64,000 bases of DNA from a virus. The stretch lies in the IMG/VR virus record IMGVR_UViG_3300020578_000011; one strand, 5' to 3'. The first letter of the stretch is position 1. Each line of letters opens with the position of its first letter. Positions 30,164 to 64,000 of the stretch are shown here, one piece after another. The position numbers were made by a program, and so were the translations under genes. A model generated the notes under the pieces. That model was not told where the DNA came from. It did no database searches and saw nothing but the letters and a program-made list of their open reading frames with translations.

Positions 30164-30320
30164 TAGCAAAAACCTTCTCCATTGCAAGTTGGACAATAGC
30201 CATGATACCAAACGTAATTGCCATCTAAGTTTTTATTTAGAGTTTGAATTGCTTCCCAACCAGATCCACTGCAACTTTTACATTTATATATTGATGCTTT
30301 ATTTATTATCTTTAATATCT
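30163..30320 (-). CDS. Small DnaJ-type zinc-finger protein (start uncertain)
   Basis: CKSCSGSG...CPTCNGEG. Confidence 0.45.
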
Positions 30321-30817
30321 TCAGTAGATAAATAAGCTTTCGCAAGATTGAAAAACCATTCCGGCTTTTCTCTTTTTGTCCATTTTGGTTTGATTTTATC
30401 TTTAGACCATTTGATGAGAAAGCCAAATCTGTAAGCTTCGATGACATTTTCAATGTCCTTTCTCAAAGAACAATTGGGAAAAGGGGTAAGATCTCCCTTT
30501 TCAACTAGATGTCTTTGATTATACAAAGAATCAAATGTCACTGTATAAGTTTTATGAATTTTTCCGTATCGATGTGTGTACTCATTGCTCATTGCAAGTA
30601 ATAGTTCAAGATGCCATTCGTAATTAGAATTAGTATCACCGGTCCAGATAGTGCAAGGATGCTTTTTCCACGCCACTCGATACGGAGCAATTCCACCATG
30701 TCTATCGATTGCAGTTGACAACATTTGAGCAGATTCGATTATCATCTTGTTTAATCTTTTGTCATCTAGATGCTGTGCACATTCTATAGGATCATCGGAC
30801 GTAAAGAAGATATTCAT
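30299..30817 (-). CDS. Pyrimidine-dimer DNA glycosylase-like (endonuclease V-related) protein
   Basis: MNIF....P..CA...DDK...KM..E.AQMLST...HPCT.W...NY.W......EY..RYGK.H...W..R..P.W. Confidence 0.8.
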   Translation of the reverse strand: MNIFFTSDDPIECAQHLDDKRLNKMIIESAQMLSTAIDRHGGIAPYRVAWKKHPCTIWTGDTNSNYEWHLELLLAMSNEYTHRYGKIHKTYTVTFDSLYNQRHLVEKGDLTPFPNCSLRKDIENVIEAYRFGFLIKWSKDKIKPKWTKREKPEWFFNLAKAYLSTEDIKDNK

Positions 30818-31246: not shown

Positions 31247-31711
31247 TTATCTAACTTTATAAATTAGTTCTATATAACCTTCTTCTGTTAAAGAAGATTC
31301 TATTTTTAAATCTGCCATTGTCATTATTTCATTAAAGTCTTTATATATATCTTTTGCTATTATTTTTCTAACTCCACATTGCCAAAGCATCCTCATACAC
31401 CTGCAACAGGGTGTCATTGTACAAACAACAAAAGTATTTTCCATTGATATCCCATGTTGAGCTGCGTTGCATATTAAATTTTCTTCTGAATGAATCATGT
31501 ATTTATATTTATCAGGTCTCGTTGACGGCAGTATGCTATCGTTTGTACCTCTAACAAAACCATTACATCCGGTTGCAATAATTGCACCAGAAGATTCTTT
31601 TACCAAGACAGAGCCAACCTTTGTTTCCATATCATGACTTCTCAATGAAGCCACTTGTGCAAAATTCATGTAAAAAGAATTTTTAGACAATCGAGAAATC
31701 ATCAAGTCCAA
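31247..31711 (-). CDS. dCMP deaminase
   Basis: A.RS.D..TKVG...TG.NG...HSEEN...PCCRC. Confidence 0.9.
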   Translation of the reverse strand: MDLMISRLSKNSFYMNFAQVASLRSHDMETKVGSVLVKESSGAIIATGCNGFVRGTNDSILPSTRPDKYKYMIHSEENLICNAAQHGISMENTFVVCTMTPCCRCMRMLWQCGVRKIIAKDIYKDFNEIMTMADLKIESSLTEEGYIELIYKVR

Positions 31712-33577: not shown

Positions 33578-34348
33578 CTAACCTATCATTTTTAAAATAA
33601 CTGAAAGATCTTTTTCATACATATGCATCGAATGAGCTATATGAGTATATGAGCCTGTTTTTAAATTTGGATATTTATCTAATAATTCTAGAGTCATTTT
33701 ATTTTGTAAATAAACAAAAAATGGAACATCATAAACTGTTCCTCTTAATACATCATTGCTGCGCATTACCGCGGTCATGTTTAAATTTTCATTTCTTATA
33801 CTAAAAGAAACATGCATCGTACATGGAAAATCTTTATTACCAATCCACGCATGATAAGGTTTGTTTATTCTCATTACTGCTTGTCTTGAATCTTTGTCAT
33901 TCAATAAGCTCTGTTTAGCCCATTCCCATGGGGTTCTTTTAAACGAAGACATATCACATGCAAGAGTATTTGGATATGATTCATACGAGCCGTCGCCTTC
34001 GCTGTGATCTTTCATTGTTAAAAAACCATAGTTAGAATTTACAGTACCATCTGGATTTGCTATTTTATTCCAAAACTTACTTATCTTAGTGGCCGACTCC
34101 ACTGATCTAAAACCAGACAGATACCATTCCATTTCTTTTATAGTATAGTCTTTTATTATTGTATTTCTTTCTAAATCATTTGTAATAATAGATTCTGAAG
34201 TAGGTTTTTTTACTTCAAAAATATAATTAGATATTTCTCTAATCAATTGCCCACGTGGAGACGACAGATTTTCATAATTTTCAACTATATTTTTTAATAA
34301 ATCTAAATACGCCTCACTAGTTGTCGTATATGTTAATTTGTTATTCAT
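33578..34348 (-). CDS. Thymidylate-synthase-fold enzyme, predicted dCMP hydroxymethyl/methyltransferase
   Basis: DSRQA, DFPCT (catalytic Cys), MRSND...G..YD (Asp at the E. coli ThyA N177 position), H.AHSMH.Y. Confidence 0.8.
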   Translation of the reverse strand: MNNKLTYTTTSEAYLDLLKNIVENYENLSSPRGQLIREISNYIFEVKKPTSESIITNDLERNTIIKDYTIKEMEWYLSGFRSVESATKISKFWNKIANPDGTVNSNYGFLTMKDHSEGDGSYESYPNTLACDMSSFKRTPWEWAKQSLLNDKDSRQAVMRINKPYHAWIGNKDFPCTMHVSFSIRNENLNMTAVMRSNDVLRGTVYDVPFFVYLQNKMTLELLDKYPNLKTGSYTHIAHSMHMYEKDLSVILKMIG

Positions 34349-38166: not shown

Positions 38167-38805
38167 TCATTTACTAGCAAGAACTATTTGGCATATATGC
38201 TCAAGTCTCTCTATATGCTCAAAAGCAGCCCACGGATTTGGGCCTACTGCAACAACGCCATGTCTATCTAGGCCGCATATATCAACAGTTGGGTTCTTGA
38301 ACCAGTCAATGTCACCCCCGTCTGATTCGATTAATTGGCTCTGATTTGTCATGTAGGCATAAGTATACTGAGCTAGTTCTTTTGATATGGCTGGTTTAAA
38401 AGGCACGTTCTCACCAACGATGGTGTATCTGTTTATTTCTGGGAATAAAGAAGCTATGTTTTTCAGGCTATAACCTGAATACATAGCTGCTATTATATAA
38501 GTGGGATGAAGATGCACAACAGCTCTGCATTCGTTAGAAGATCTCTGAAGAAGTTCGTGCATTTCTAATTCGCCACTTGGTTTGTCAGAGTCTGACACTG
38601 TTACGTGGTGTTTTTTTTGAGTTTCATCTATTTGCCATTTCATTTTAATAACAGATTCTGGCTGTATCGTCGGTTTTCTAACTCCAGACGGAGTTATATA
38701 AAGTACTTTTGAATTTTTACGATGCAAAGAAATATTACCATCTCTAGTTGAGATCCAACCTCGTTTATAAGCTTCTCTCATTACATCGCCAATTGCGGTT
38801 AGCAT
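38167..38805 (-). CDS. Class II aldolase/adducin family protein
   Basis: DGNIS, ITPSG, KPSGELEMH, VVHLHP, HGVVAVG. Confidence 0.9.
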   Translation of the reverse strand: MLTAIGDVMREAYKRGWISTRDGNISLHRKNSKVLYITPSGVRKPTIQPESVIKMKWQIDETQKKHHVTVSDSDKPSGELEMHELLQRSSNECRAVVHLHPTYIIAAMYSGYSLKNIASLFPEINRYTIVGENVPFKPAISKELAQYTYAYMTNQSQLIESDGGDIDWFKNPTVDICGLDRHGVVAVGPNPWAAFEHIERLEHICQIVLASK

Positions 38806-38814
38806 AATCTTTCC

Positions 38815-39825
38815 TTATTTGCCGTGTGCATAATTTTCTTTTATAGAGCTATTGCTAATTAAATTAAATATTGCTTTTTCTCTAAATTGTCTTAAATCAA
38901 CAGCTCCGACATATGTCAGTGCGGATCTTATCCCACCATCGATATCTTTTATAATCTCTACAACAGAGCCCTTATAGGGTGTTTTAAACAACTCTCCTTC
39001 TGCACAGCTCCAATCTTTGCCTTGATCAACATAAGATTCTTTAGAAGCAGATCCTCTGTATATTTTATATGCTTTTCCTTCGATGATGGAAATGTTTCCC
39101 GGTGTTTCTTTTGTTCCTGCGATCATTCCACCAAGCATCACCATGCGAGCGCCCGCAGCTAAGGCTTTTGCAACATCGCCAGAGGTTCTTATTCCACCAT
39201 CTGCTATCATTGGTATATTTGTTTGATTACAACTAATTAATGCTGAAATTTGAGGGACACCGCATCCAGTTTTAATTCTAGTTGTGCATGCAGAGCCAGG
39301 TCCAATTCCAACTTTTATAGCATCTGGTTTGTATCCAAGATGATTACAAAATTTCTCAACACTGTTTTTATTTCCAAAATTTCCAACAATTAAAAATACG
39401 TGTGGAAATTTTAATTTAACATATTTATAAAAATTAACAACCTGCATTTGAGCAGCGTGTGCAACATCTATCGTTACTATTTCTGCTCCTACGTCTATTA
39501 AACTTTCTAATCTTTGTTTTTCTAAATCAGAAATACCAATAGATACCCATGGTGCTTTATTGGTATGTTTTTTAACTTTTAAAAAGTTAATTACATTTTC
39601 TTCAATTGTACAAAAACGATGAAGACAACCCATGGCACCAGTGGATATAAGTGTCTCAGCCATCTCTGGTCCACATACTGTATCCATATTTGCTGCGACT
39701 ATAGGTAATTGTAATTTTGTTTTTTCATCATTTAAACAAGATACTGTATTTACTTCTTTTCTACTTGAAACAGTGGAAAAAGAAGGCTCGATCAACACGT
39801 CATCAAAGGTTATTAATTTATCCAT
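38815..39825 (-). CDS. IMP dehydrogenase / GMP reductase family (no CBS domain)
   Basis: [54 protein letters not shown]...EG. Confidence 0.9.
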
Positions 39826-40316: not shown

Positions 40317-41330
40317 TTAAAAATCGTCATCTACGTAGTTAAAACCTAATCTACTATCGCTTTTACGATGTGAAGATTCTTCTGCTTTTTTTCTTTGTTC
40401 TAATAATTCCTCTACTGCTTTTTCTAAAGGCATATCGTATAATTCATGACGAAGAACCGCTTCCTTTGAATATGCAGGAGTCATTTTTGTGCCTTTAAAG
40501 GCTTCTTTTTCTGAGTCGTTTAATTTTCTTTCTATGAATTTTTCAACAAGCCAAATAATCTCTTCGTCTTTCGGTCTTTCAACCTCTCTGACAATATCAA
40601 ATCTACCTGGTCTGCTTGTTAGAGTCTTATTCAGACTGTCTAAGTAGTTTGTTGTGGCAACTATCATTGTTGGAATCTTAAATAAATCAGAGTTGCCATC
40701 AAGAAAGTTTAACATAGAAGGATCGACTCTTTCTGCTCTTTGATCAAGTCCAGATCCTCCAATGTCTTCTATTACTAGTACAATAAAATCAACCTTTGAA
40801 GCATCTGAGGCCATAAACATATCTGTTATTGTCTCAAAACTAACTTCATCTGAGTCGATTCTTAATATACATATTTTTTCAAGTTTGTTCATTTGTCTAC
40901 AAAAAAAGTTTATCAAAGAGCTTTTTCCAACACCTGGCTCTGATCCAAAAAGAAAACCACGTTTTGGTGGAATATTTCTCTTACGATACGTATTTATATT
41001 TTTTCTAAAAACTTCAAAATGTTTCATTAATTCTTTTGAAGAATCAGTTTCGTAATAAGTAAAGTCTATTAAATCCATTTTAATTAGACCTTCTTGAGGA
41101 GTTATTCTCCATGCTCCAGGTGTTATTTCATACGATTGTTTTTTCTTTTTGCTTGAAATAACATCCATGTCTAACAGATATGGTTCGCTTATCTGCGAAA
41201 CTCTTCCACTTTCTTTTACTTCTTCAATTGTTTTATTTACAACTAATTGATAGTTGCCAAGTTCTATTTCAATGCCAGGTTTTAGACGAGTTATAGATCT
41301 AACTTTTGCTATTTTTTTATTTTCACTCAT
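40317..41330 (-). CDS. AAA+ ATPase
   Basis: KRGFLFGSEPGVGKS, VIEDI, ATTN, RPGRFD. Confidence 0.9.
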   Translation of the reverse strand: MSENKKIAKVRSITRLKPGIEIELGNYQLVVNKTIEEVKESGRVSQISEPYLLDMDVISSKKKKQSYEITPGAWRITPQEGLIKMDLIDFTYYETDSSKELMKHFEVFRKNINTYRKRNIPPKRGFLFGSEPGVGKSSLINFFCRQMNKLEKICILRIDSDEVSFETITDMFMASDASKVDFIVLVIEDIGGSGLDQRAERVDPSMLNFLDGNSDLFKIPTMIVATTNYLDSLNKTLTSRPGRFDIVREVERPKDEEIIWLVEKFIERKLNDSEKEAFKGTKMTPAYSKEAVLRHELYDMPLEKAVEELLEQRKKAEESSHRKSDSRLGFNYVDDDF

Positions 41331-41649
41331 TTTTTCTCCCTGTCTCTACTGTTGAATTCCTCAACGGAGACTCCATGCAAGAAAATTCTTCCACAGAATC
41401 AGGATCACACATCGAGTTGTTGTAAAACAAGTAAGTGTATCTTTTAGAGTTTTTTATTAAACTAAGTTGATATGCTGCTGATATTTTTTCATTATCAAAT
41501 TTAAACTCAAATATAGAAACTTTTTTAAGCGTAGATGCAATTGAGTTATCTACCATTTTTGAATCGTTTTCTATTTGCTGCGCGGATCCGACAAAAAAAG
41601 TCAAAGACGAATCTCTCTCTAATTCGTCTTCTTCATTATTTAAGATCAT
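41323..41649 (-). CDS. Hypothetical protein
   Basis: 108-aa ORF. Confidence 0.5.
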   Translation of the reverse strand: MILNNEEDELERDSSLTFFVGSAQQIENDSKMVDNSIASTLKKVSIFEFKFDNEKISAAYQLSLIKNSKRYTYLFYNNSMCDPDSVEEFSCMESPLRNSTVETGRKNE

Positions 41650-42025
41650 TTAACAACTCCGGAAAATCAGCGCAAGAAATTATGTTTTCTTTATAAAAAG
41701 GAAACTTGTCTATTGCTTTTTTATATGCTTTTTTGTAAAGCCAACAATGATATGGGATGATTATTTTATTTAATAAAGATGCAATACGAACACCTATAAG
41801 AAAATCTATTTTTGTAAGCCATTTAGGATATCTATAATACATATAACCCGGATGAGTTATTGAATGTATGTTGTAAAAACCCAAAGTACAGTAAACACGA
41901 ACCGTTCCATATTTTTCTTTTGCTTGAAAAACATTAACTCGTCCGTATTTTTTTAAATATGTCGCTATCATATGTGCAGCTTCTTCTGCAATACGAGTAT
42001 CTATATCTTCTTCTCTTAGGAACAT
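41636..42025 (-). CDS. Phage protein with Q.KEK(F/Y)G..R.Y motif
   Basis: QAKEKYGTVRVY. Confidence 0.6.
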   Translation of the reverse strand: MFLREEDIDTRIAEEAAHMIATYLKKYGRVNVFQAKEKYGTVRVYCTLGFYNIHSITHPGYMYYRYPKWLTKIDFLIGVRIASLLNKIIIPYHCWLYKKAYKKAIDKFPFYKENIISCADFPELLNDLK

Positions 42026-42026
42026 T

Positions 42027-43058
42027 TTATCCCCTGTTTTCTAATACTTTTACAAATCCCTTCCAAGTGTTTGTACTTACTGCTAAATTCAACCTAATTT
42101 GATTAGGAAATCCGCCGCATTTAGAACCGGGTGTTGATTTTATATTTAATTCGTTTAATTTGTAAAATATAGAATTGTCATCAGTCGACACCCAGGCAAA
42201 CATACCTGGCGCTGCATCATATTGCCATTTATGTAATTTACACATTTCTAATAATTGTTTTTTTCTATATTTTAGAGTTTCTTCTATTTGTTTTAGAGCT
42301 TTTTCCCAATTTTTATTATCTAAAACATTAGACATTATTTCTTCTGTTTTTAATTGAGTATCAAAACCAAGTCCACCAGATTCATATTCCATATAATCGC
42401 ATATTTCGTTATACAAATCTTCATCATCTACAAGTGCCCATCCAAAACGAACACCGCAATGTCCTGTCATTTTTGATAAACTAAAAATCATTGCTTTTTT
42501 AGGAGCTGTTGTTATTTGTTTTAATGCATTTTCATAAGTATCTTTTTCCATATACCATGGCCATAAATATACAGCGTCATACCAATCGCTCGACCTTTCG
42601 CCCGTTTGAAGTTTTCCATCTGGATTATTAGGATATGTTATGAGTTTTGTGTAAAAATCGTTGTTTAAACGATTCGAATCGTTATCAAGATGATTCGAAT
42701 CGTTGTTTAACTGTTCTATAAGCAGTAATTCAGAATTCTTCATCGAGGACATAACTGGAATTCTAAACCAATAAGGGCTTGTTATTTTTACTTTTTTATT
42801 TATGTGAAAAAAACAACTTATTAATTGACTAGCTCCACTGCCTATAACTATTTTGGTAGTGGGTTTTATTAAACCTGGATGAAATTTTTCATGAATTTTG
42901 TATATTGTTTCTACTACAAAAGAAAGTGGACCATTTTTATTATAAGGCATTCCAGACAAAATATCTGACTCTAAGAATGAATCTTGAATATATTTTTCTA
43001 AAATTTCTTTTAAAAGATCTGCGCTACCTACACCCAGGTCGATCATAAATGTCTCCAT
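42027..43058 (-). CDS. PLP-dependent fold-type-I enzyme, alliinase/TAA1 tryptophan aminotransferase-like
   Basis: IVIGSGASQL, PNNPDG, D..Y.WP.Y, FSLSKMTGHCGVRFGWALV.D (PLP Lys), FAW, IRLNL. Confidence 0.8.
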   Translation of the reverse strand: METFMIDLGVGSADLLKEILEKYIQDSFLESDILSGMPYNKNGPLSFVVETIYKIHEKFHPGLIKPTTKIVIGSGASQLISCFFHINKKVKITSPYWFRIPVMSSMKNSELLLIEQLNNDSNHLDNDSNRLNNDFYTKLITYPNNPDGKLQTGERSSDWYDAVYLWPWYMEKDTYENALKQITTAPKKAMIFSLSKMTGHCGVRFGWALVDDEDLYNEICDYMEYESGGLGFDTQLKTEEIMSNVLDNKNWEKALKQIEETLKYRKKQLLEMCKLHKWQYDAAPGMFAWVSTDDNSIFYKLNELNIKSTPGSKCGGFPNQIRLNLAVSTNTWKGFVKVLENRG

Positions 43059-44459
43059 TCATTTTGCACCTTTAGGTATTTGAATAGTGTCGCCCAAACG
43101 AGAAATTGGATGATCAGACGAGCCGCCACGAGAAATTATCCACAAAACTTGCGGAAAATTTTGACCAGGTTTTAACCATTGCTCAAACTTTACGTCGGAA
43201 TAATAACCATCTGTTATTACGATGTTTAAATCTGATTTAGTATTTAACATGTGAGTTAGAGAATCTGACAAACATGTTCCACCCATTTTTACTTCTTTTT
43301 TAAGAGGCTCTCTATCGCCTATTTTATACTTAGATGAAAAATAATTAACATCAGAAAACAAATTTATGGAACAACGTCGATTGCCTACTTTAAGAAATTC
43401 ATCAACTGTGTCTAAAAATTCATTCATTTCTTCTTGCGATATCGAACCAGACGTGTCGATGTACATTGCCAACTTTGGCAAGTCTCCTTCTTTTGTTCCG
43501 GGTGCTTTATTGCCAAATCTACGAGATTTTCTTGCCCATGAATATTTTCTATCAATACCCGTTGCCGATCTCTTAATTGCAGCTAAAATTAATTGACGAT
43601 AATTTAATTCAGCTTTTCTTATTTTAATGTCTTCAAGAAGATCTTTGATACTAGATGGGAGATCGTCCCAGCTCATTGATTGCTTGACCATTGCGCGTTT
43701 TACAAGATCTTCTGTTGCATTTAGCACATCAGATTCTTCTGCATTGGCATGCCATTCATGACTGTCAAATTGCCTAGGCGCATTCTTTGCATCTCCATCT
43801 TGACCATCTTTATTATCTTCATTGTCTTCTTCTTCGTATAGTTCCATTAATTTCTCAAAATAAAACTCCATTGTCTTTCCATTTTGCCATGGAGTTTTTT
43901 TCTTACTTTTTTCATCTTCATCATAAAAATTCGATGGCAACATAGCGTGACCACAGCATAAGTCATTGGAACATTGAGCTCCTTGCTTCATCTCTTCTAA
44001 AGGAGGACATTGTCTACAACCTTGCGGTAGATTTTTAATCAATGTATTAATCGACATGTCGCCTGCGATATTTAACAAGCGTCTTTTATGATCACTTACC
44101 TTCATAAAAGGAACACGAATCAAATGTTTGTGAGTTATGTGACAGATTTCATGAATTAAAACAGCAACTCGCTGCTCAGGCGACAAAGCTTTGCAAAAAA
44201 AACGCGGATTTATAAACATCTCATATCGTGCGTTGTCTGGACTAAAACTAACACCCGCTGTTGGAACCATGTATGAATATTGAATATTCATCAACGAAAG
44301 CATAGCACCGTAAAATGTATGATATTTGTTTACTTCATAAAGTGCGGTTGCTAGACATTGTTTTTTTAGCTCTTCTGATGTGTCATCTTTTGCAACCATA
44401 ACTAAAGCTTTTTTCTTTGTAACGCTATTGTCAGCGGTTGCAACTGCCTGAGTAGACAT
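43059..44459 (-). CDS. Metallopeptidase-like (HEXXH) + VWA-like protein (DUF2201-type), partner of the MoxR AAA
   Basis: VPTAGV, HEICH, NIAGD..IN, IDTSGSIS (MIDAS), GGT, ITDGY. Confidence 0.85.
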   Translation of the reverse strand: MSTQAVATADNSVTKKKALVMVAKDDTSEELKKQCLATALYEVNKYHTFYGAMLSLMNIQYSYMVPTAGVSFSPDNARYEMFINPRFFCKALSPEQRVAVLIHEICHITHKHLIRVPFMKVSDHKRRLLNIAGDMSINTLIKNLPQGCRQCPPLEEMKQGAQCSNDLCCGHAMLPSNFYDEDEKSKKKTPWQNGKTMEFYFEKLMELYEEEDNEDNKDGQDGDAKNAPRQFDSHEWHANAEESDVLNATEDLVKRAMVKQSMSWDDLPSSIKDLLEDIKIRKAELNYRQLILAAIKRSATGIDRKYSWARKSRRFGNKAPGTKEGDLPKLAMYIDTSGSISQEEMNEFLDTVDEFLKVGNRRCSINLFSDVNYFSSKYKIGDREPLKKEVKMGGTCLSDSLTHMLNTKSDLNIVITDGYYSDVKFEQWLKPGQNFPQVLWIISRGGSSDHPISRLGDTIQIPKGAK

Positions 44460-44484
44460 ACATACCTCCATGTTTATTATTTAA

Positions 44485-44494
44485 TAGAATCGGA
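44485..44494 (-). promoter_or_regulatory. TCCGATTCTA motif
   Basis: 25 nt upstream of ATG 44459 (SD GGAGG). Confidence 0.75.
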
Positions 44495-45104: not shown

Positions 45105-45347
45105 TTATGTAATTATGCAAGATTTAAAACCTCCTTTAATGACACTGTTTGTGTTTTTGCAAATATTATGTTTTTCTATCTTAATAGTTTTTAATCTTGT
45201 TTTTCTTAATCTCATGTCTATTTTGTCAAAAGTATCAAAATGATTATTGTTTTTCCAATAATAAACTACATTATATTTAATGTTTTCCTCCTCTCCTCCT
45301 TCTTCCTCAATAAGGTCTTCATATACCTCAATCAACTCTTCATTCAT
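45105..45347 (-). CDS. Hypothetical protein
   Basis: SD GGAG; overlaps the thyX stop. Confidence 0.5.
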   Translation of the reverse strand: MNEELIEVYEDLIEEEGGEEENIKYNVVYYWKNNNHFDTFDKIDMRLRKTRLKTIKIEKHNICKNTNSVIKGGFKSCIIT

Positions 45348-46221
45348 TAGAAATCTCCATTAAATTATTTTTAATAAGATCAATGGTTTGAGGTGCTTCT
45401 TCTAATATTTGACGAAACTGTGTCCAGCCTCTAAAGTTTCTAGAAAAATAATCAAGCTCATCTTCAGGTATTGCTATATGCTCAAACGGCGAGGCGTGAA
45501 TTGGTTTTGATTCGCCTAGTTGCAAAAATATTCTAAGGTCATTGTTTAAATCAGATGCTCCACCATCTATCTTGTCATAAGAAACACGCGCACATCTAGC
45601 GACTGATTTTACAATCAAGGACGATAGGAATTTTGGATCGCTGATGTCTCCTGCGTTTTTCTCATCTTCTGTCACAAAAGGCAAATGCATATCATTGTGA
45701 TCTGTTTTTAAAATTGAGCAACTAGAATCTAATTGCTTTTTCATATTTTTAGCAAGCTCAGCCAATTCAGGTTGTGCGTCTTCATGATCTCTTAAAACAA
45801 AAAAATTGTCAAATTCAGTTGCTGTAACAACCATTTTCATGTGTACAAATGGTTCAAGTAATCTATTACAATGTTGTTTATGCACCCCAATGTCTGCCAG
45901 TGCTCTTGCACAGCTTATCATTTCATCTCTTGCCTTTCTCCAAATAATCTTTGCCTGTGCCTCTTGCTCGGGCAATAAATACTCAGATGCCTGCATCCCT
46001 TTTTTATTTTTAGAAAATCTGATTGGAAGCGCTGTGTCTTCTATAATTCTATCTACAAAAGTTTTAAGTGGTATTGCTCTAGAAGACGCAGCATTTCTAG
46101 AAAAAACTCTATGTGTCATTATTTCAGCATGGATAAAACGAGGATATATTAATACAAAGGTTGTTATTCTATTTCCAAAATTATTTATAGAATCTGCTAT
46201 TATTTCTGATTTTATAGTCAT
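45340..46221 (-). CDS. thyX: Flavin-dependent thymidylate synthase (phage type)
   Basis: YPRFIHAE..THRVFSRNAASSRAIP, HKQ..NRLLEPF, LR.H.DAQPE, ARCARVSY, HASPFEH. Confidence 0.9.
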   Translation of the reverse strand: MTIKSEIIADSINNFGNRITTFVLIYPRFIHAEIMTHRVFSRNAASSRAIPLKTFVDRIIEDTALPIRFSKNKKGMQASEYLLPEQEAQAKIIWRKARDEMISCARALADIGVHKQHCNRLLEPFVHMKMVVTATEFDNFFVLRDHEDAQPELAELAKNMKKQLDSSCSILKTDHNDMHLPFVTEDEKNAGDISDPKFLSSLIVKSVARCARVSYDKIDGGASDLNNDLRIFLQLGESKPIHASPFEHIAIPEDELDYFSRNFRGWTQFRQILEEAPQTIDLIKNNLMEISNE

Positions 46222-47308: not shown

Positions 47309-48424
47309 TCACTTTTTTACATTATTAAGTTTAATGTTTTGCTTAAGAATGTTCACAAGATCCGGATGTTTTTTGGAAAAATCTGTAAATGCATCATTGA
47401 TATTTGTCTTTGCAGTTTTAATAATACACTCCTTGATTAAGGTCAATGCTTGATCAGAATTAATTACCTTTGCAACCTCCACCATTACATCTTCGCCGAC
47501 CTGCTCCTCAGAAGGACTTGTACCTCCGTATGCCTTGATGAGAGATTCAACCGTGACAGCAATCATGTCGCCTTGATACTTGTCAGGTTGAGATTGTTGC
47601 TTGAGTTTGTTAAGAGCTTTCTTCTTATCGCTTAAAAGATCTTGAGCTGTTACAGGAGCATCATCGTGTACGAATTTCCAGAATTCAGCACCAGTATCTT
47701 TGCCTAAGATAGACAGGGCGATAGTACGATGTAGGGCTTTATCTTCTAGCGAGCCGGCTTCATGTGCTGCATTCAGCTGAGCCCATGTGCGTGGAGATAC
47801 ATAACGTCCATCTTTGCCAAGAGATGATGCGTCTTTGTATGTCCATGTCCCTGATTTGACAAACATTTGAATCGTATTGCAGAAGCTTTTGTTAGTCATA
47901 TATTCTACAAATGTATTGTGATCATATTCTACGTCAAAAGACACAAAACGATTTCTAAGAGCAGTATCCATTGAATTAACATCATACTCAGCAGATTCCG
48001 GATTAATGCATGCGGCAATAATCCATCCATCTGGAAGACTATAATTATGAATTGTCCTATCTGTAAGAAGCTGCATCATTGTATTCATAATTGCAGTAGT
48101 TCCACGATTAGGCTCCTCAAGGAGAAGAAGGCCTTCTCCCTCTGTTGGCCAAAAGTCGGGAAGATGATGAACAGTTCGTTGACGACCGTATGGATCGACT
48201 TCACTAGAAGGAAAACCAATGATATCAGGGGCTTCCATGTACGCAAGACGAAGATCGATAAAACCAAAAGATGAATTCTTTTTTCGTTTTTGCTCTACCC
48301 ATTGTTGACAAATTTGAGACTTGCCGATGCCTGCTGCACCTGCAAACAATGGATTAAAAATCTGACCTTTTTTACGAGCTTCATATGTAAGATCAAGGAC
48401 TTCTACGATTCTGGATGGTTTCAT
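47309..48424 (-). CDS. MoxR-like AAA+ ATPase
   Basis: GAAGIGKS, IDLRL, LLLEEPNRG, AACINP, ALRNRF, SPRTW. Confidence 0.9.
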   Translation of the reverse strand: MKPSRIVEVLDLTYEARKKGQIFNPLFAGAAGIGKSQICQQWVEQKRKKNSSFGFIDLRLAYMEAPDIIGFPSSEVDPYGRQRTVHHLPDFWPTEGEGLLLLEEPNRGTTAIMNTMMQLLTDRTIHNYSLPDGWIIAACINPESAEYDVNSMDTALRNRFVSFDVEYDHNTFVEYMTNKSFCNTIQMFVKSGTWTYKDASSLGKDGRYVSPRTWAQLNAAHEAGSLEDKALHRTIALSILGKDTGAEFWKFVHDDAPVTAQDLLSDKKKALNKLKQQSQPDKYQGDMIAVTVESLIKAYGGTSPSEEQVGEDVMVEVAKVINSDQALTLIKECIIKTAKTNINDAFTDFSKKHPDLVNILKQNIKLNNVKK

Positions 48425-48576: not shown

Positions 48577-49392
48577 GTGATGAAAAAAGTTATTAGTCTA
48601 TTTAGTACGTTTATTAGTTTAGCTTTTCCGCTTGTTTCAAGTGCTTCCTCGCCACAAGAGGTTCTTGTTCTCGATAAAGATAATCATATTCTTTTAAATG
48701 GAGAAATAAATTCAAAAATGTCAAGTGAGTTTATTTCTCAAATGTTGAAAACAAAATCTGACAATTTAGTTGTGTACATAAATTCTCCCGGTGGCTCTGT
48801 TATCTCTGGTATGAAAATTGTTCAAACTGCAAAAGATATTAAAGCAAATAATAGTAATTTAAAAATAACATGCTATGTTGACTTTGCGGCATCAATGGCT
48901 TTTGTAATAACACAAACAATATGCGATGAGAGAATAGTTGGTGAAACCTCTGTTCTAATGCAGCATCAAGCAACTTTTGGAGTACAAGGAAGAACCGGTG
49001 AAATAGCTGCAAGAACTGGTATGGTTCTTTCTATTTTAGATGTTATGGACTCTGCTCAGGCAAAAAGATTGAAAATCACAAAAGATGAACTTCGTAAAAA
49101 ATCAAAAGACGAATGGTGGCTAGTTGGTAAAAATGCAGTAAAAAACAACGCAGCAGATAAAAAAGGCTCTGTTGTTTGCACTGCGGAATTGGTTGATTTA
49201 ATTAAAAAAGAAACTCTAATAATATTGGGAGCAAAAATAGAATTATCATGGTCTAGTTGTCCGTTGGTTGAATATCCAGTTAAAATTGAAGTAAATAGAA
49301 AAGATATTTCACCAGAAGAAAAAACTAAAATAGAAAACAAAATCTATGAATCTATAGAAAATAGAAAAAAGATATTTACAACAAGTCCTTAA
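48577..49392 (+). CDS. clpP: ClpP-like serine protease with N-terminal signal peptide
   Basis: YINSPGGSV, AASMA (Ser), MQHQ (His), DEWW (Asp); MKK-hydrophobic-SSA leader. Confidence 0.8.
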   Translation: MMKKVISLFSTFISLAFPLVSSASSPQEVLVLDKDNHILLNGEINSKMSSEFISQMLKTKSDNLVVYINSPGGSVISGMKIVQTAKDIKANNSNLKITCYVDFAASMAFVITQTICDERIVGETSVLMQHQATFGVQGRTGEIAARTGMVLSILDVMDSAQAKRLKITKDELRKKSKDEWWLVGKNAVKNNAADKKGSVVCTAELVDLIKKETLIILGAKIELSWSSCPLVEYPVKIEVNRKDISPEEKTKIENKIYESIENRKKIFTTSP

Positions 49393-49982: not shown

Positions 49983-50747
49983 ATGTCTGATAAAAATAAA
50001 CTTGATGAACTTGTATCTACTGGAATAGATTGGGATAAGCGTAGAATCTATTTTGGAAGTATAGATTCGGGAGAGGATGGTGGTGAATTTTCTTGGCATA
50101 CTGTAGAAAGAGCTATCAGAGCTATTCATAAAATGAGTGAAATAAATATAAATCCGATTGAAATTCACATGAATTCCGAAGGCGGCAATCCATATGACAT
50201 GCTTAGACTCGTTGATGAGATTGAAGCAGCGCCTGTTCAAATAAAATTCATAGGCGGAGGTATGATTGCTAGTTGTGCAACATGGGTTATGGCCGTATGT
50301 GATCATAGGTATCTCCATAAAAACACAACTGTATTGGTTCATGATGGGAATGACGGAATATCTGGAACACATACAGATGGTCAAATTCAAGCACAGCATT
50401 TGAAAAAAATGCAGGATAGACTTTATGATATTTATGAATCAAATTCAAGAATGCCAAAGTCTTTTTGGCAAGATTTATGCCAAAGAGATTTATATTTAAA
50501 GGCAGAAGAAGCTGTTTTATTAGGTTTGGCTGATGAGATTATAGACTCAAGAAAACGTGGTAATGTAAGAAAATCTAGAACAAAAAGACTAAACGGACAA
50601 CCAAACGCAAAAGAAATGCAAGATCTCATAAAAGACCTTTATAAAAGAATAGAAAGAAGTCGAGTACCAAAGCTTGCAATGAATGAAAGTAAAGAAGAAT
50701 TTGATGATTCTTTAACTAATCCTTTTGAGGCTCAAGACAACCAATAG
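49983..50747 (+). CDS. clpP: ClpP-like protease, cytoplasmic
   Basis: RRIYF, MNSEGG, IASCA, LVHD, RDLYL.AEEA..LGLADEI. Confidence 0.85.
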   Translation: MSDKNKLDELVSTGIDWDKRRIYFGSIDSGEDGGEFSWHTVERAIRAIHKMSEININPIEIHMNSEGGNPYDMLRLVDEIEAAPVQIKFIGGGMIASCATWVMAVCDHRYLHKNTTVLVHDGNDGISGTHTDGQIQAQHLKKMQDRLYDIYESNSRMPKSFWQDLCQRDLYLKAEEAVLLGLADEIIDSRKRGNVRKSRTKRLNGQPNAKEMQDLIKDLYKRIERSRVPKLAMNESKEEFDDSLTNPFEAQDNQ

Positions 50748-60315: not shown

Positions 60316-60513
60316 CTATATTAATTCTATTTGTTTAAGAAGTTTTTTAAGACTTTCAATTGCAGATTCTGGTGATCTTGCAGATATTTGAAAATTTGTT
60401 AATGTTTTTTTATAAGCTGTATAATTAGCACTACATGTTGCAGACGCTATCCACTCATTTGTATCTTCATCAAAGAAAATACTAATACTTATGTCTTCTT
60501 TACTTATTCGCAC
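60316..60513 (-). CDS. Small HicB-N-like hypothetical protein
   Basis: I..DE....W.A......SPE.AI..LK pattern. Confidence 0.4.
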   Translation of the reverse strand: MRISKEDISISIFFDEDTNEWIASATCSANYTAYKKTLTNFQISARSPESAIESLKKLLKQIELI

Positions 60514-60914
60514 TTTATCTCCATAGCGTAACCATTTTCAGTAGTATATGCAAATTTTATTATTCCAAATTTAGACGCAAGATTCTGACAACCGCTGCAT
60601 GGATATGCTATTGCTGGTCGTCCGTCTTTTGATTTTCTATATGTAACCATTATTAATTTTCTTCTATCAGATTCAGATAAATTAAGAAGAAAATTTCTAG
60701 CTTTTGCAATTGCATTTGCTTCAGCGTGCACGGTCACTGGCCTTCCATATATATCATGATTGCACAGTGGGTGAGTTTTTGTTATATTGTTACAGCCAGT
60801 AGATACAAGATGATTTTTAAAAAATAAAGCAGCACCAATTTTATATTGATCGTGTTCAGCTCTTTCGCTGGCATCGATTGCTGGTTTAAACACTCTTGGC
60901 AACAAGTTTTCCAT
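60504..60914 (-). CDS. Cytidine/dCMP deaminase-family protein (second deaminase)
   Basis: IGA.L......G.N..KTHP, HAE..AI, PC..C, YTT..G. Confidence 0.85.
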   Translation of the reverse strand: MENLLPRVFKPAIDASERAEHDQYKIGAALFFKNHLVSTGCNNITKTHPLCNHDIYGRPVTVHAEANAIAKARNFLLNLSESDRRKLIMVTYRKSKDGRPAIAYPCSGCQNLASKFGIIKFAYTTENGYAMEIKCE

Positions 60915-60982
60915 ATCTCCTCCACTCACGCCAAAGCATACTCTTAGTGCCTGATAGTTGGCTTAGCCTACCATCATAAAGA

Positions 60983-61058
60983 TGGTAGGCCCGGGTGGAA
61001 TTGAACCACCTACCAACTGCTTATAAGGCAGCTGCTCTGACCGGTGAGCTACGGGCCT
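60983..61058 (-). tRNA. tRNA-Ile, anticodon TAT (UAU), with encoded CCA
   Basis: AGGCCCG acceptor / GCTC D-arm / GCTGC-CTTATAA-GCAGT anticodon arm / GGTGG-TTCAATT-CCACC T-arm / CGGGCCT-A-CCA. Confidence 0.9.
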
Positions 61059-62189: not shown

Positions 62190-64000
62190 ATGGCATATTT
62201 ATCTAATAAATTAAAAAGAAGAATAGTTATTGCCGTTACCAGTGAGAAATATGGTAAAGAATTGATAGATGCCATAGAGGGCGTGTCAAGTAGCAGTGTC
62301 GGTCCACAAGGTCCGCAGGGCGAACAAGGTCCAATTGGGCCGCAAGGGATTCAGGGAATTCAAGGTCTCACTGGCCTACAGGGTGTCCAGGGCCCCAAGG
62401 GAGATCAGGGCGTTCAAGGACCACAAGGTTTACAAGGAGAGACTGGTGCAGCATTAACTGTTATGGGATCATATAACACTTTACAAGATTTTTTAAGTGG
62501 GGCTGGTAGTTTAGCTGGGGACCCTGGTGAAGCTTGGATAATATCATCAGATGGTTCTTTATATGTTTGGAATGTTTATACTTATTCGTGGACAAATGCA
62601 GGATCGATTCAAGGACCTCAAGGCCCACAGGGTCTGCAGGGGATTCAGGGACCAAGTGGAGCACAAGGCGCACAAGGTGAAGTTGGCCCACAAGGTCTTC
62701 AAGGTGAACAAGGCGTCCAAGGTCTCAAGGGCGATAAAGGCGATCAAGGCGACGTTGGTTCAACTGGTCCTCAAGGAACTCAAGGTCCTCAAGGTCCTCA
62801 AGGGCCTCAGGGAATTCAAGGTATTCAAGGTATTCAAGGTGCCACTGGTCTTCAAGGTGCCAAGGGTGACAAGGGCGACCAAGGAGAAGTAGGTCCTCAA
62901 GGTCCTCAAGGTCCTCAAGGTATTCAAGGCGCTACTGGTCTTCAAGGTGCCAAAGGCGATAAGGGTGATCAAGGTAACGTTGGCTCAGCAGGAGACAGGT
63001 ACCACACCACTTCGTCGTCGTCGTTTACTATTCAAAACAGTGGTCAGTTTACAGTAACTACAGATGATTTAGATTTAGACTATTCTATAGCTCAAACTGT
63101 GATTTTGGCCTATGATGCCAATAATCACCAACATGCTTCTGTCGTTAGTTACAACCCGTCGACTGGCGAGTTGGCACTAGACAGAACAGATTCTAGTGGC
63201 GCTGGTACTTATAGTAGTTGGAGTATTAATTTAAGTGGAGCTGTCGGTATCAAGGGCGATAAGGGCGACCAAGGAGAAGTAGGTCCTCAAGGTCCTCAAG
63301 GTCCCCAAGGCCCTCAAGGTGTTCAAGGTGCCACTGGTCTTCAAGGCGCCAAGGGCGATAAGGGCGACCAAGGAGAAGTAGGTCCTCAAGGTCCTCAAGG
63401 CCCTCAAGGTACCCAGGGCGCCAAGGGCGACCAGGGCGACACAGGTCCTCAAGGTGCTCAAGGCGACACAGGCCCTCAAGGCCCTCAAGGCCCTCAAGGT
63501 GTTCAAGGTGCCACTGGTCTTCAAGGCACCAAGGGTGATAAGGGCGATCAGGGCGACACAGGTCCTCAGGGCGATCAGGGTGACACAGGTCCTCAAGGCC
63601 CTCAAGGTGTCCAGGGTGCTCAAGGTGTCCAGGGTGCTCAAGGTGTCCAGGGTGCCAAGGGCGACCAGGGTGATAAGGGAGATCAGGGAGACACAGGTCC
63701 TCAAGGTCCTCAAGGCCCTCAAGGCCCTCAAGGTGTCCAGGGTGCTCAAGGTGCCACTGGTCTTCAAGGTACCAAGGGTGATAAGGGCGATCAAGGAGAA
63801 GTAGGCCCTCAAGGCCCTCAGGGTCCTCAAGGTACTAAGGGAGATCAGGGCGACACAGGTCCTCAAGGTGCTCAAGGCGACACAGGCCCTCAAGGTACCC
63901 AGGGTGCCCAGGGCGATAAGGGCGACCAAGGAGAAGTAGGTCCTCAAGGTCCTCAAGGTCCTCAAGGCCCTCAAGGCCCTCAAGGTCCGCAAGGTGCCCA
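62190..64000 (+). CDS. Collagen-like fibre protein (3' truncated; not in ORF track)
   Basis: ATG 62190 after GAGG; open to the window end; long G-X-Y tracts; GDRYHTTS...WSINL.GA domain. Confidence 0.9.

Follow-up and report, generated by a model that had tools for sequence, protein, structure and literature searches.

The gene at positions 42027-43058 (minus strand) of the analysed stretch, that is, the 64,000 nucleotides of IMG/VR virus record IMGVR_UViG_3300020578_000011 (hereafter the window), encodes with a probability of roughly 0.6 a genuine and probably active fold-type I pyridoxal phosphate (PLP) enzyme of the Alliinase_C (TAA1/alliinase) family, which would act as a stand-alone enzyme, its substrate being a free L-amino acid and its favoured reaction transamination. 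The resemblance of its sequence to alliinase and TAA1 is far beyond chance. The protein belongs to a compact (about 300-360 aa) subfamily without the EGF-like domain, which is very diverse in metagenomes and occurs across several unrelated lineages of large phages. The present status is that of a well-supported annotation.

The gene product and its family assignment

The gene and the repeat inside it are located as follows:
42027-43058, minus strand: Alliinase_C-family PLP enzyme gene (from the ORF listing, Pfam, PDB phmmer and fold)
42656-42710, no strand assigned: 21-nt tandem repeat in 2.6 copies, encoding a low-complexity insert

In the ORF listing the frame codes for 343 aa from the first ATG, and all residue numbers given here are those of this 343-aa frame. 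At the junction with the upstream gene, the stop codon TGA is directly followed by ATG GAG ACA TTT ATG, and the second ATG, at 43046, is preceded by a GGAG at a distance of about 7 nt. Because of this spacing, of the N-terminus of the relatives (MIDL..., whose Met is equivalent to the second ATG) and of the database copy of the window protein, which is 339 aa long, the true product is probably a protein of 339 aa starting at the ATG at 43046. The identical protein is found on 16 contigs, the longest of which is 149 kb. The motifs quoted in the original prediction, namely IVIGSGASQL, PNNPDG, D-AV-Y-L-WP-W-Y, FSLSKMTGHCGVRFGWALVDD and FAW, can all be read in the translation of 42027-43058. The insert corresponds to residues ~118-134, is rich in N, D and S and lies in a loop with pLDDT < 50 in the AlphaFold2 model; it is present only in the window copy and missing from all aligned relatives, and it resembles an insertion made by slippage within a surface loop.

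In the comparison of the two competing Pfam profiles, Alliinase_C (PF04864) matched the window protein with 101.7 bits (E 5e-29, cut-off 22) versus 45.9 bits for Aminotran_1_2 (PF00155), whose match is full-length. The window protein begins at about position 2-3 of the Alliinase_C profile, and its match is interrupted by the window-specific insert; P0053, a distant relative without the insert, reaches 188 bits and covers positions 2-362 of 363. The same profile was matched by all 51 of 51 diverse short-form relatives, with a best E of 3e-62. The NCBIfam models of HisC (24 bits, cut-off 276.6), CobD (20.5 bits, cut-off 290.6) and the plant-type DAP aminotransferase (19.5 bits, cut-off 364.7) all scored below their cut-offs. 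In the phmmer search of the PDB, garlic alliinase (3e-18) and TAA1 (2e-16) were the best matches, and the next aminotransferases had E > 0.1. The EGF-like domain PF04863 gave no Pfam match in the window protein, and phrog_5879, a family without annotated function, matches the C-terminal half only (E 1e-10).

The AlphaFold2 model, which was built on 21 relatives (pLDDT 84, pTM 0.84), leads to the same family. Foldseek placed TAA1 (TM 0.82) and alliinase (0.81) above generic aminotransferases (~0.70), and VIA-align gave Z 32.3 for TAA1 and Z 32.0 for alliinase, with an rmsd of 2.5 A over 321-323 residues; the next tier (Z <= 28.6) comprised ACC synthase, the C-S lyases MetC, cystalysin and PatB, and AspAT. 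That the protein is alliinase/TAA1-like and not an ordinary bacterial aminotransferase, as had been proposed from the letters, is borne out by the HMM scores, by the fold and by the rooted tree described below.

Relatives, phylogeny and predicted active site

About 30 metagenomic proteins of 316-340 aa, which are 42-53% identical to the window protein, lie on phage contigs. A profile search over 1.84 billion cluster representatives returned 1186 matches at E <= 1e-3, with 756 at E <= 1e-10 and 143 at E <= 1e-30, and among the 150 matches listed of the 1186, most are 300-360 aa long. Viral sequences, assigned to Uroviricota, make up 83-99% of the three nearest ESM Atlas clusters (with 57, 53 and 239 members), all of which carry PF04864. 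In addition, scanning IMG/VR for one exact degenerate DNA motif turned up 14 true members, on contigs of 20-163 kb. Distant short forms also stand on phage-like contigs, namely P0053 with GroEL, an SbcC-like gene and Pol III alpha, and P0036 with PolA and a DnaB carrying an intein. By contrast with this abundance in metagenomes, tblastn of the window protein and P0053 against 50,697 GenBank phage records gave no match, and therefore the family is not tied to any cultured phage or host; in BFVD there was no close alliinase-like phage protein, the best match being a giant-virus aminotransferase. Taken as sequence matches, these searches indicate that large uncultured phages carry the compact form widely and in great diversity. 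The earlier view of the family as mainly plant and eukaryotic thus agrees with the literature but not with sequence space, where 1186 representatives and Atlas clusters that are largely viral were found; likewise, the phage copy that had been called unexpected is indeed a phage gene, but not a one-off, being a member of a large phage-borne subfamily.

The surroundings of the gene differ among these lineages, and no neighbour gene shared across lineages was found among the loci compared. In the clade of the window itself (window, L003 and L004), the order is MoxR, SLT, ThyX, DUF2201/VWA, PLP gene and 129-aa ORF. In a second clade (L001 and L005-L008), the PLP gene is located between a neck-like gene and the major capsid gene, which is an odd place for metabolic genes, and it forms with a dCMP deaminase gene and a GmhA-like isomerase gene (of the sedoheptulose-7-phosphate isomerase type) a run with overlapping stops and starts (L001 4360-6318, the same in L005-L008). 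Several of the motif-recovered IMG/VR contigs have a third arrangement of GroEL, zinc-ribbon and PLP genes: at L011 7779-11071, and also in L022, L025, L028 and L029, the PLP gene always comes after a GroEL gene (Cpn60, ~590 aa) and a gene for a zinc-ribbon protein of ~90 aa, and an SbcC-like ATPase gene often follows it.

Longer forms of 371-497 aa come from eukaryotes (Tetraselmis, Diplonema and protist transcriptomes), and bacterial ones from a Bacillota MAG and from a contig with STAS and SpoIIE genes. Two longer-form contigs look giant-viral, one of them with DOT1, PP2C and a RING finger and the other with PolB. The proteins concerned (L015 7001-8242 and L016 3200-4315; 371-413 aa) sit on contigs that look either giant-viral or eukaryotic, NUDIX being recorded along with the family-B DNA polymerase. 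A Bdellovibrionales MAG has one short form, on a contig that looks bacterial; this MAG is the only one of 401 Bdellovibrionota genomes with PF04864, and none of 14 control genomes has it.

Phylogeny was inferred with FastTree (n=201) and with a rooted IQ-TREE (n=81), whose outgroup consisted of five generic class-I aminotransferases from the Bdellovibrionales MAG; the eukaryotes were represented by a green alga, Diplonema and protist transcriptomes, with no land plants among them. The family was split from the five outgroup aminotransferases with SH-aLRT 99, and the window protein lay inside a phage clade with support 100. That is to say, a position among HisC, AspC or CobD, which had been named beforehand as speaking against the family, was not found. 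All long forms, including the eukaryotic ones, formed one clade (support 97-98), and the window protein fell in the short-form group. The first rooted tree had the eukaryotic and long forms nested in the phage short forms, and this topology was dropped after the AU test: when the short forms were forced into a single clade, the tree was 43 log-likelihood units better than the quick tree (p-AU 0.89). Because the AU test does not reject the constrained tree, short and long forms are read as sister subfamilies and no direction is claimed. Judged by its place in the tree, the window protein is not an ortholog of TAA1 or alliinase.

With alliinase residues counted along the phmmer alignment to the PDB sequence, N207, D225, Y228, K251 and R259 of alliinase align to N145, D161, Y164, K196 and R204 of the window protein. 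These five residues and R322 are invariant in the 21-sequence alignment of close relatives (A1) and conserved family-wide (76 family members), and the C-terminal R322 is conserved in every row, including the generic aminotransferase outgroup. Lys196 is the predicted Schiff-base lysine. From what is generally known of class-I aminotransferases, and from its conservation, R322 is presumably the Arg for the substrate carboxylate, and by analogy it would bind the alpha-carboxylate of a free alpha-amino acid; Trp97 would be the ring-stacking residue, and Tyr39 the partner-subunit Tyr. By the look of its residues, the window protein appears catalytically competent. In addition to this common set, W166, P167, F192, R265 and H56 are kept in at least 95% of the long (cellular) forms and in at least 87% of the short forms, and most or all of the five outgroup aminotransferases have other residues there. 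R99, Y169, G285-M286-F287 and N324 are conserved in the short forms only, and they hint at a substrate unlike that of TAA1 and of alliinase.

Phage setting and candidate function

The window phage is AT-rich (~33% GC). Its genes in the window include tail-fibre-like and other virion genes, both RNR subunits, DNA ligase, ThyX, an SLT lysozyme-like gene, a MoxR-like ATPase, the DUF2201 metallopeptidase/VWA gene and two ClpP genes, and these virion and replication genes, together with the phage contigs of the relatives, support the phage setting of the gene. The features around the PLP enzyme gene are:
43059-44471, minus strand: upstream gene for a DUF2201_N putative metallopeptidase with a VWA-like domain, without a gap to the PLP enzyme gene
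41636-42025, minus strand: downstream ORF of 129 aa, 1 nt after the PLP enzyme gene
44485-44494, minus strand: strand-specific phage motif TCCGATTCTA, directly upstream of the DUF2201/VWA gene
41603-41631, minus strand: terminator-like hairpin, an 11-bp stem and then a T-run, 5 nt past the stop of the 129-aa ORF

The motif TCCGATTCTA occurs in 14 copies in the window versus 3.3 expected, and its copy at 44485-44494 is the likely promoter element of a unit that includes the PLP gene. The hairpin is a possible end of this three-gene unit; terminator-like sites in the region are not enriched over shuffles. The synteny of the DUF2201/VWA gene and the PLP gene is seen only in the window's own phage clade (window, L003 and L004). 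The 129-aa ORF keeps its position in L003 and L004 and has a homolog near the PLP gene in L013, and no lead to its identity came from Pfam, PHROG, PDB or ESM Atlas. The label 'HNH endonuclease' that PHROG gives to the DUF2201 family looks like a misannotation.

Protease and ATPase genes are clustered round the PLP gene, namely, besides the DUF2201/VWA gene, the MoxR-like ATPase (47309-48424, minus), an AAA ATPase (40317-41330, minus) and two ClpP-like proteases (48577-49392 and 49983-50747, both plus). A weakly MtnB-like class II aldolase gene (38167-38805, minus) adjoins an IMPDH/GMP-reductase-like gene (38815-39825, minus), the product of which has 336 aa, lacks the CBS insert and belongs to phrog_9582. 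Farther away are a DenV-like pyrimidine-dimer DNA glycosylase domain at the N-terminus of a 172-aa ORF (30299-30817, minus) and a collagen-triple-helix repeat gene (62190-63998, plus; Pfam Collagen 230 bits in 9 stretches) that runs past the end of the window and sits in a GC-rich (0.50) segment. There is also a tRNA-Ile(TAT) gene (60983-61058, minus; ARAGORN, and Rfam with 68 bits). The TAT anticodon of tRNA-Ile is uncommon in bacteria, and this tRNA may serve the ATA codons of the AT-rich phage.

The pyrimidine genes of the window make up an unusually rich toolkit for one phage: a ThyX-like gene (45340-46221, minus; phrog_85 with 260 bits, TIGR02170 with 50 bits, below its cut-off of 87.9), two dCMP deaminase genes (31247-31711 and 60504-60929, both minus) and a ThyA-like gene (33578-34348, minus). 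In the PDB the ThyA-like protein matches the CMP hydroxymethylase MilA (8e-18) and T4 dCMP hydroxymethylase (1e-12) ahead of thymidylate synthases (3e-4), and the window phage may make a 5-hydroxymethyl pyrimidine. This gene stands in a module with small ORFs and the dCMP deaminase gene at 31247-31711, and the module is conserved in L003.

Under the preferred reading, the PLP gene would be a stand-alone metabolic gene, co-transcribed with the DUF2201/VWA gene from the phage promoter motif and lying outside any DNA-modification cluster. The enzyme would by homology be a homodimer, with PLP bound to Lys196 as an internal aldimine, cofactor contacts from Asp161, Asn145, Tyr164 and Arg204, and Arg322 as the site for the alpha-carboxylate of a free L-amino acid. 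The reaction would preferably be the transamination of an amino acid to the 2-oxo acid, as in TAA1, and, as second choice, beta-elimination, as in alliinase; activity, dimer state, reaction type and substrate are inferred. Since TAA1 and alliinase share one catalytic set, the reaction type cannot be read from the sequence. Two candidate pathways were tried and rejected. One is a two-step pathway of the TAA-YUCCA type, as no monooxygenase was matched in five IMG/VR relatives (no FMO-like or Pyr_redox_3 match for a YUCCA-type partner). The other is methionine salvage with the MtnB-like aldolase, for which the match is weak (60 bits versus a cut-off of 137) and the aldolase, IMPDH-like and AAA genes are missing from the syntenic L003 and L004.

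Three other explanations have to be set against the preferred reading. An ordinary class-I aminotransferase of the HisC/AspC/CobD kind, taken from the host and only superficially like alliinase, would fit the full-length Aminotran_1_2 match of 45.9 bits and the JGI labels of relatives as aspartate, methionine or tyrosine aminotransferase. Yet the Alliinase_C score exceeds that of Aminotran_1_2 by 56 bits, the HisC and CobD scores of 20-24 bits fall far below their cut-offs of about 280, the family and the generic class-I aminotransferases part in the tree with SH-aLRT 99, the family-specific W166-P167, F192, R265 and H56 are all present, and PF04864 is nearly missing from the cellular genomes searched (0/14 controls, 1/401 Bdellovibrionota). 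This explanation is hardly credible, and a host-type HisC/AspC/CobD identity is ruled out, as far as sequence can do so, by the profile scores and the tree.

The other two accept the fold and differ in the chemistry. A beta-eliminating C-S (or C-O) lyase, which in the infected cell would split a cysteine derivative into pyruvate, ammonia and a thiol or sulfenic acid, gains from the fact that alliinase scores equal those of TAA1 by sequence and fold, that bacterial MetC, cystalysin and PatB come in the next structural tier and that the catalytic set is common to both reaction types; it is nevertheless rather unlikely, for the protein lacks the EGF-like domain found in true alliinases, no gene of sulfur metabolism is linked to its gene at the loci compared, and it falls outside the clade of the sampled eukaryotic TAA/TAR-type sequences. 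The role in DNA hypermodification that the original prediction had offered would make the protein a tailoring enzyme that acts on an amino acid appended to a hydroxymethyl-pyrimidine of a hypermodified base. PLP enzymes do tailor thymidine hypermodifications (PMC8989533), the ThyA-like gene 8 kb from the PLP gene resembles hydroxymethylases, the window phage has ThyX and two dCMP deaminases, and in the second clade the PLP gene abuts a dCMP deaminase gene. The known enzymes, M6 gp52 and ViI gp226, are however modelled on tryptophan synthase beta, which is another fold, and their genes cluster with those of 5-HMU DNA kinase and aGPT-Pplase (PMC8989533). Neither of these two domains had a Pfam match among the 40 ORFs scanned in the 30-64 kb part of the window, which is itself 64 kb of a genome of roughly 149 kb; many of the small ORFs match nothing. 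The neighbours of the PLP gene vary between lineages. Moreover, a complete relative of 162.7 kb has the PLP gene with no ThyA-like or ThyX match; neither was found in any of the five IMG/VR relatives, one of which is this complete genome, and this rules out both as obligate partners. With a different fold, no 5-HMU kinase or aGPT-Pplase domain in the ORFs scanned and no linkage across lineages, the hypermodification role found no support and is improbable. A slim chance is left for something other than a stand-alone enzyme, a beta-lyase or a tailoring enzyme.

Returning to the stand-alone enzyme, a bolder form of it may tentatively be considered as a possibility: a large subfamily carried by viruses, sister to the plant TAA/alliinase enzymes and with its own chemistry, by which many unrelated large aquatic phages would rewire the amino-acid, nitrogen or sulfur metabolism of the host during infection. 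For example, Arg99, which adjoins the ring-stacking Trp97, could make the enzyme choose a substrate that is anionic or in some other way non-aromatic.

Significance and comparison with known systems

The alliinase/TAA family is otherwise known from plant auxin and garlic-flavour chemistry and has been regarded as all but restricted to plants and protists (bioRxiv 10.1101/2024.03.19.585368), and the origin of the TAA gene has been argued over for years in the literature. No relevant paper was found in a literature search for alliinase or PF04864 in phages, viruses or viromes. Automatic labels exist for such proteins in the form of JGI names and ESM Atlas clusters; the phage Alliinase_C sequences are catalogued but unstudied, and neither GenBank phage records nor UniProt-derived viral structure sets contain the compact form. 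If the sister subfamily with its own chemistry were real, most of the diversity of the family would be viral rather than plant, which bears on the debate about the origin of TAA. If the reaction were known, phage biology would gain a new auxiliary metabolic activity, and the compact enzymes would offer a minimal scaffold and a natural outgroup for tracing how the plant enzymes came by their Trp-transaminase and C-S-lyase specificity.

Among the known systems, Arabidopsis TAA1 (L-tryptophan:pyruvate aminotransferase; PDB 3BWN/3BWO) is the best structural match and shares PF04864: 321 of 343 window residues are aligned to TAA1 residues 18-384 with an rmsd of 2.5 A. Both proteins share the cofactor residues K, N, D, Y and R as well as the C-terminal Arg for the carboxylate, and both lack the EGF-like domain. 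They differ in that identity is only about 21-23%, that TAA1 has 391 aa versus 339 aa of the window protein, and that the latter is a short-form, phage-encoded protein with R99, Y169, GMF at 285-287 and N324. Garlic alliinase (alliin lyase; PDB 1LK9/2HOR) is the best PDB match by sequence (E 3e-18) and follows closely by fold (Z 32.0), but the alignment spans alliinase residues 54-423, past its EGF-like domain, which the window protein does not have, and the window protein stands outside the eukaryotic clade. The PLP decarboxylases of thymidine hypermodification, M6 gp52 and ViI gp226, are likewise phage-encoded PLP enzymes, whereas the fold of the window protein in the AlphaFold2 model is class-I aminotransferase-like. 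The closest counterparts are the viral Alliinase_C metagenome clusters (ESM Atlas, JGI names), of which the window protein is a member with about 30 relatives of like length, and from which it is set apart by the tandem-repeat insert that is unique to the window copy.
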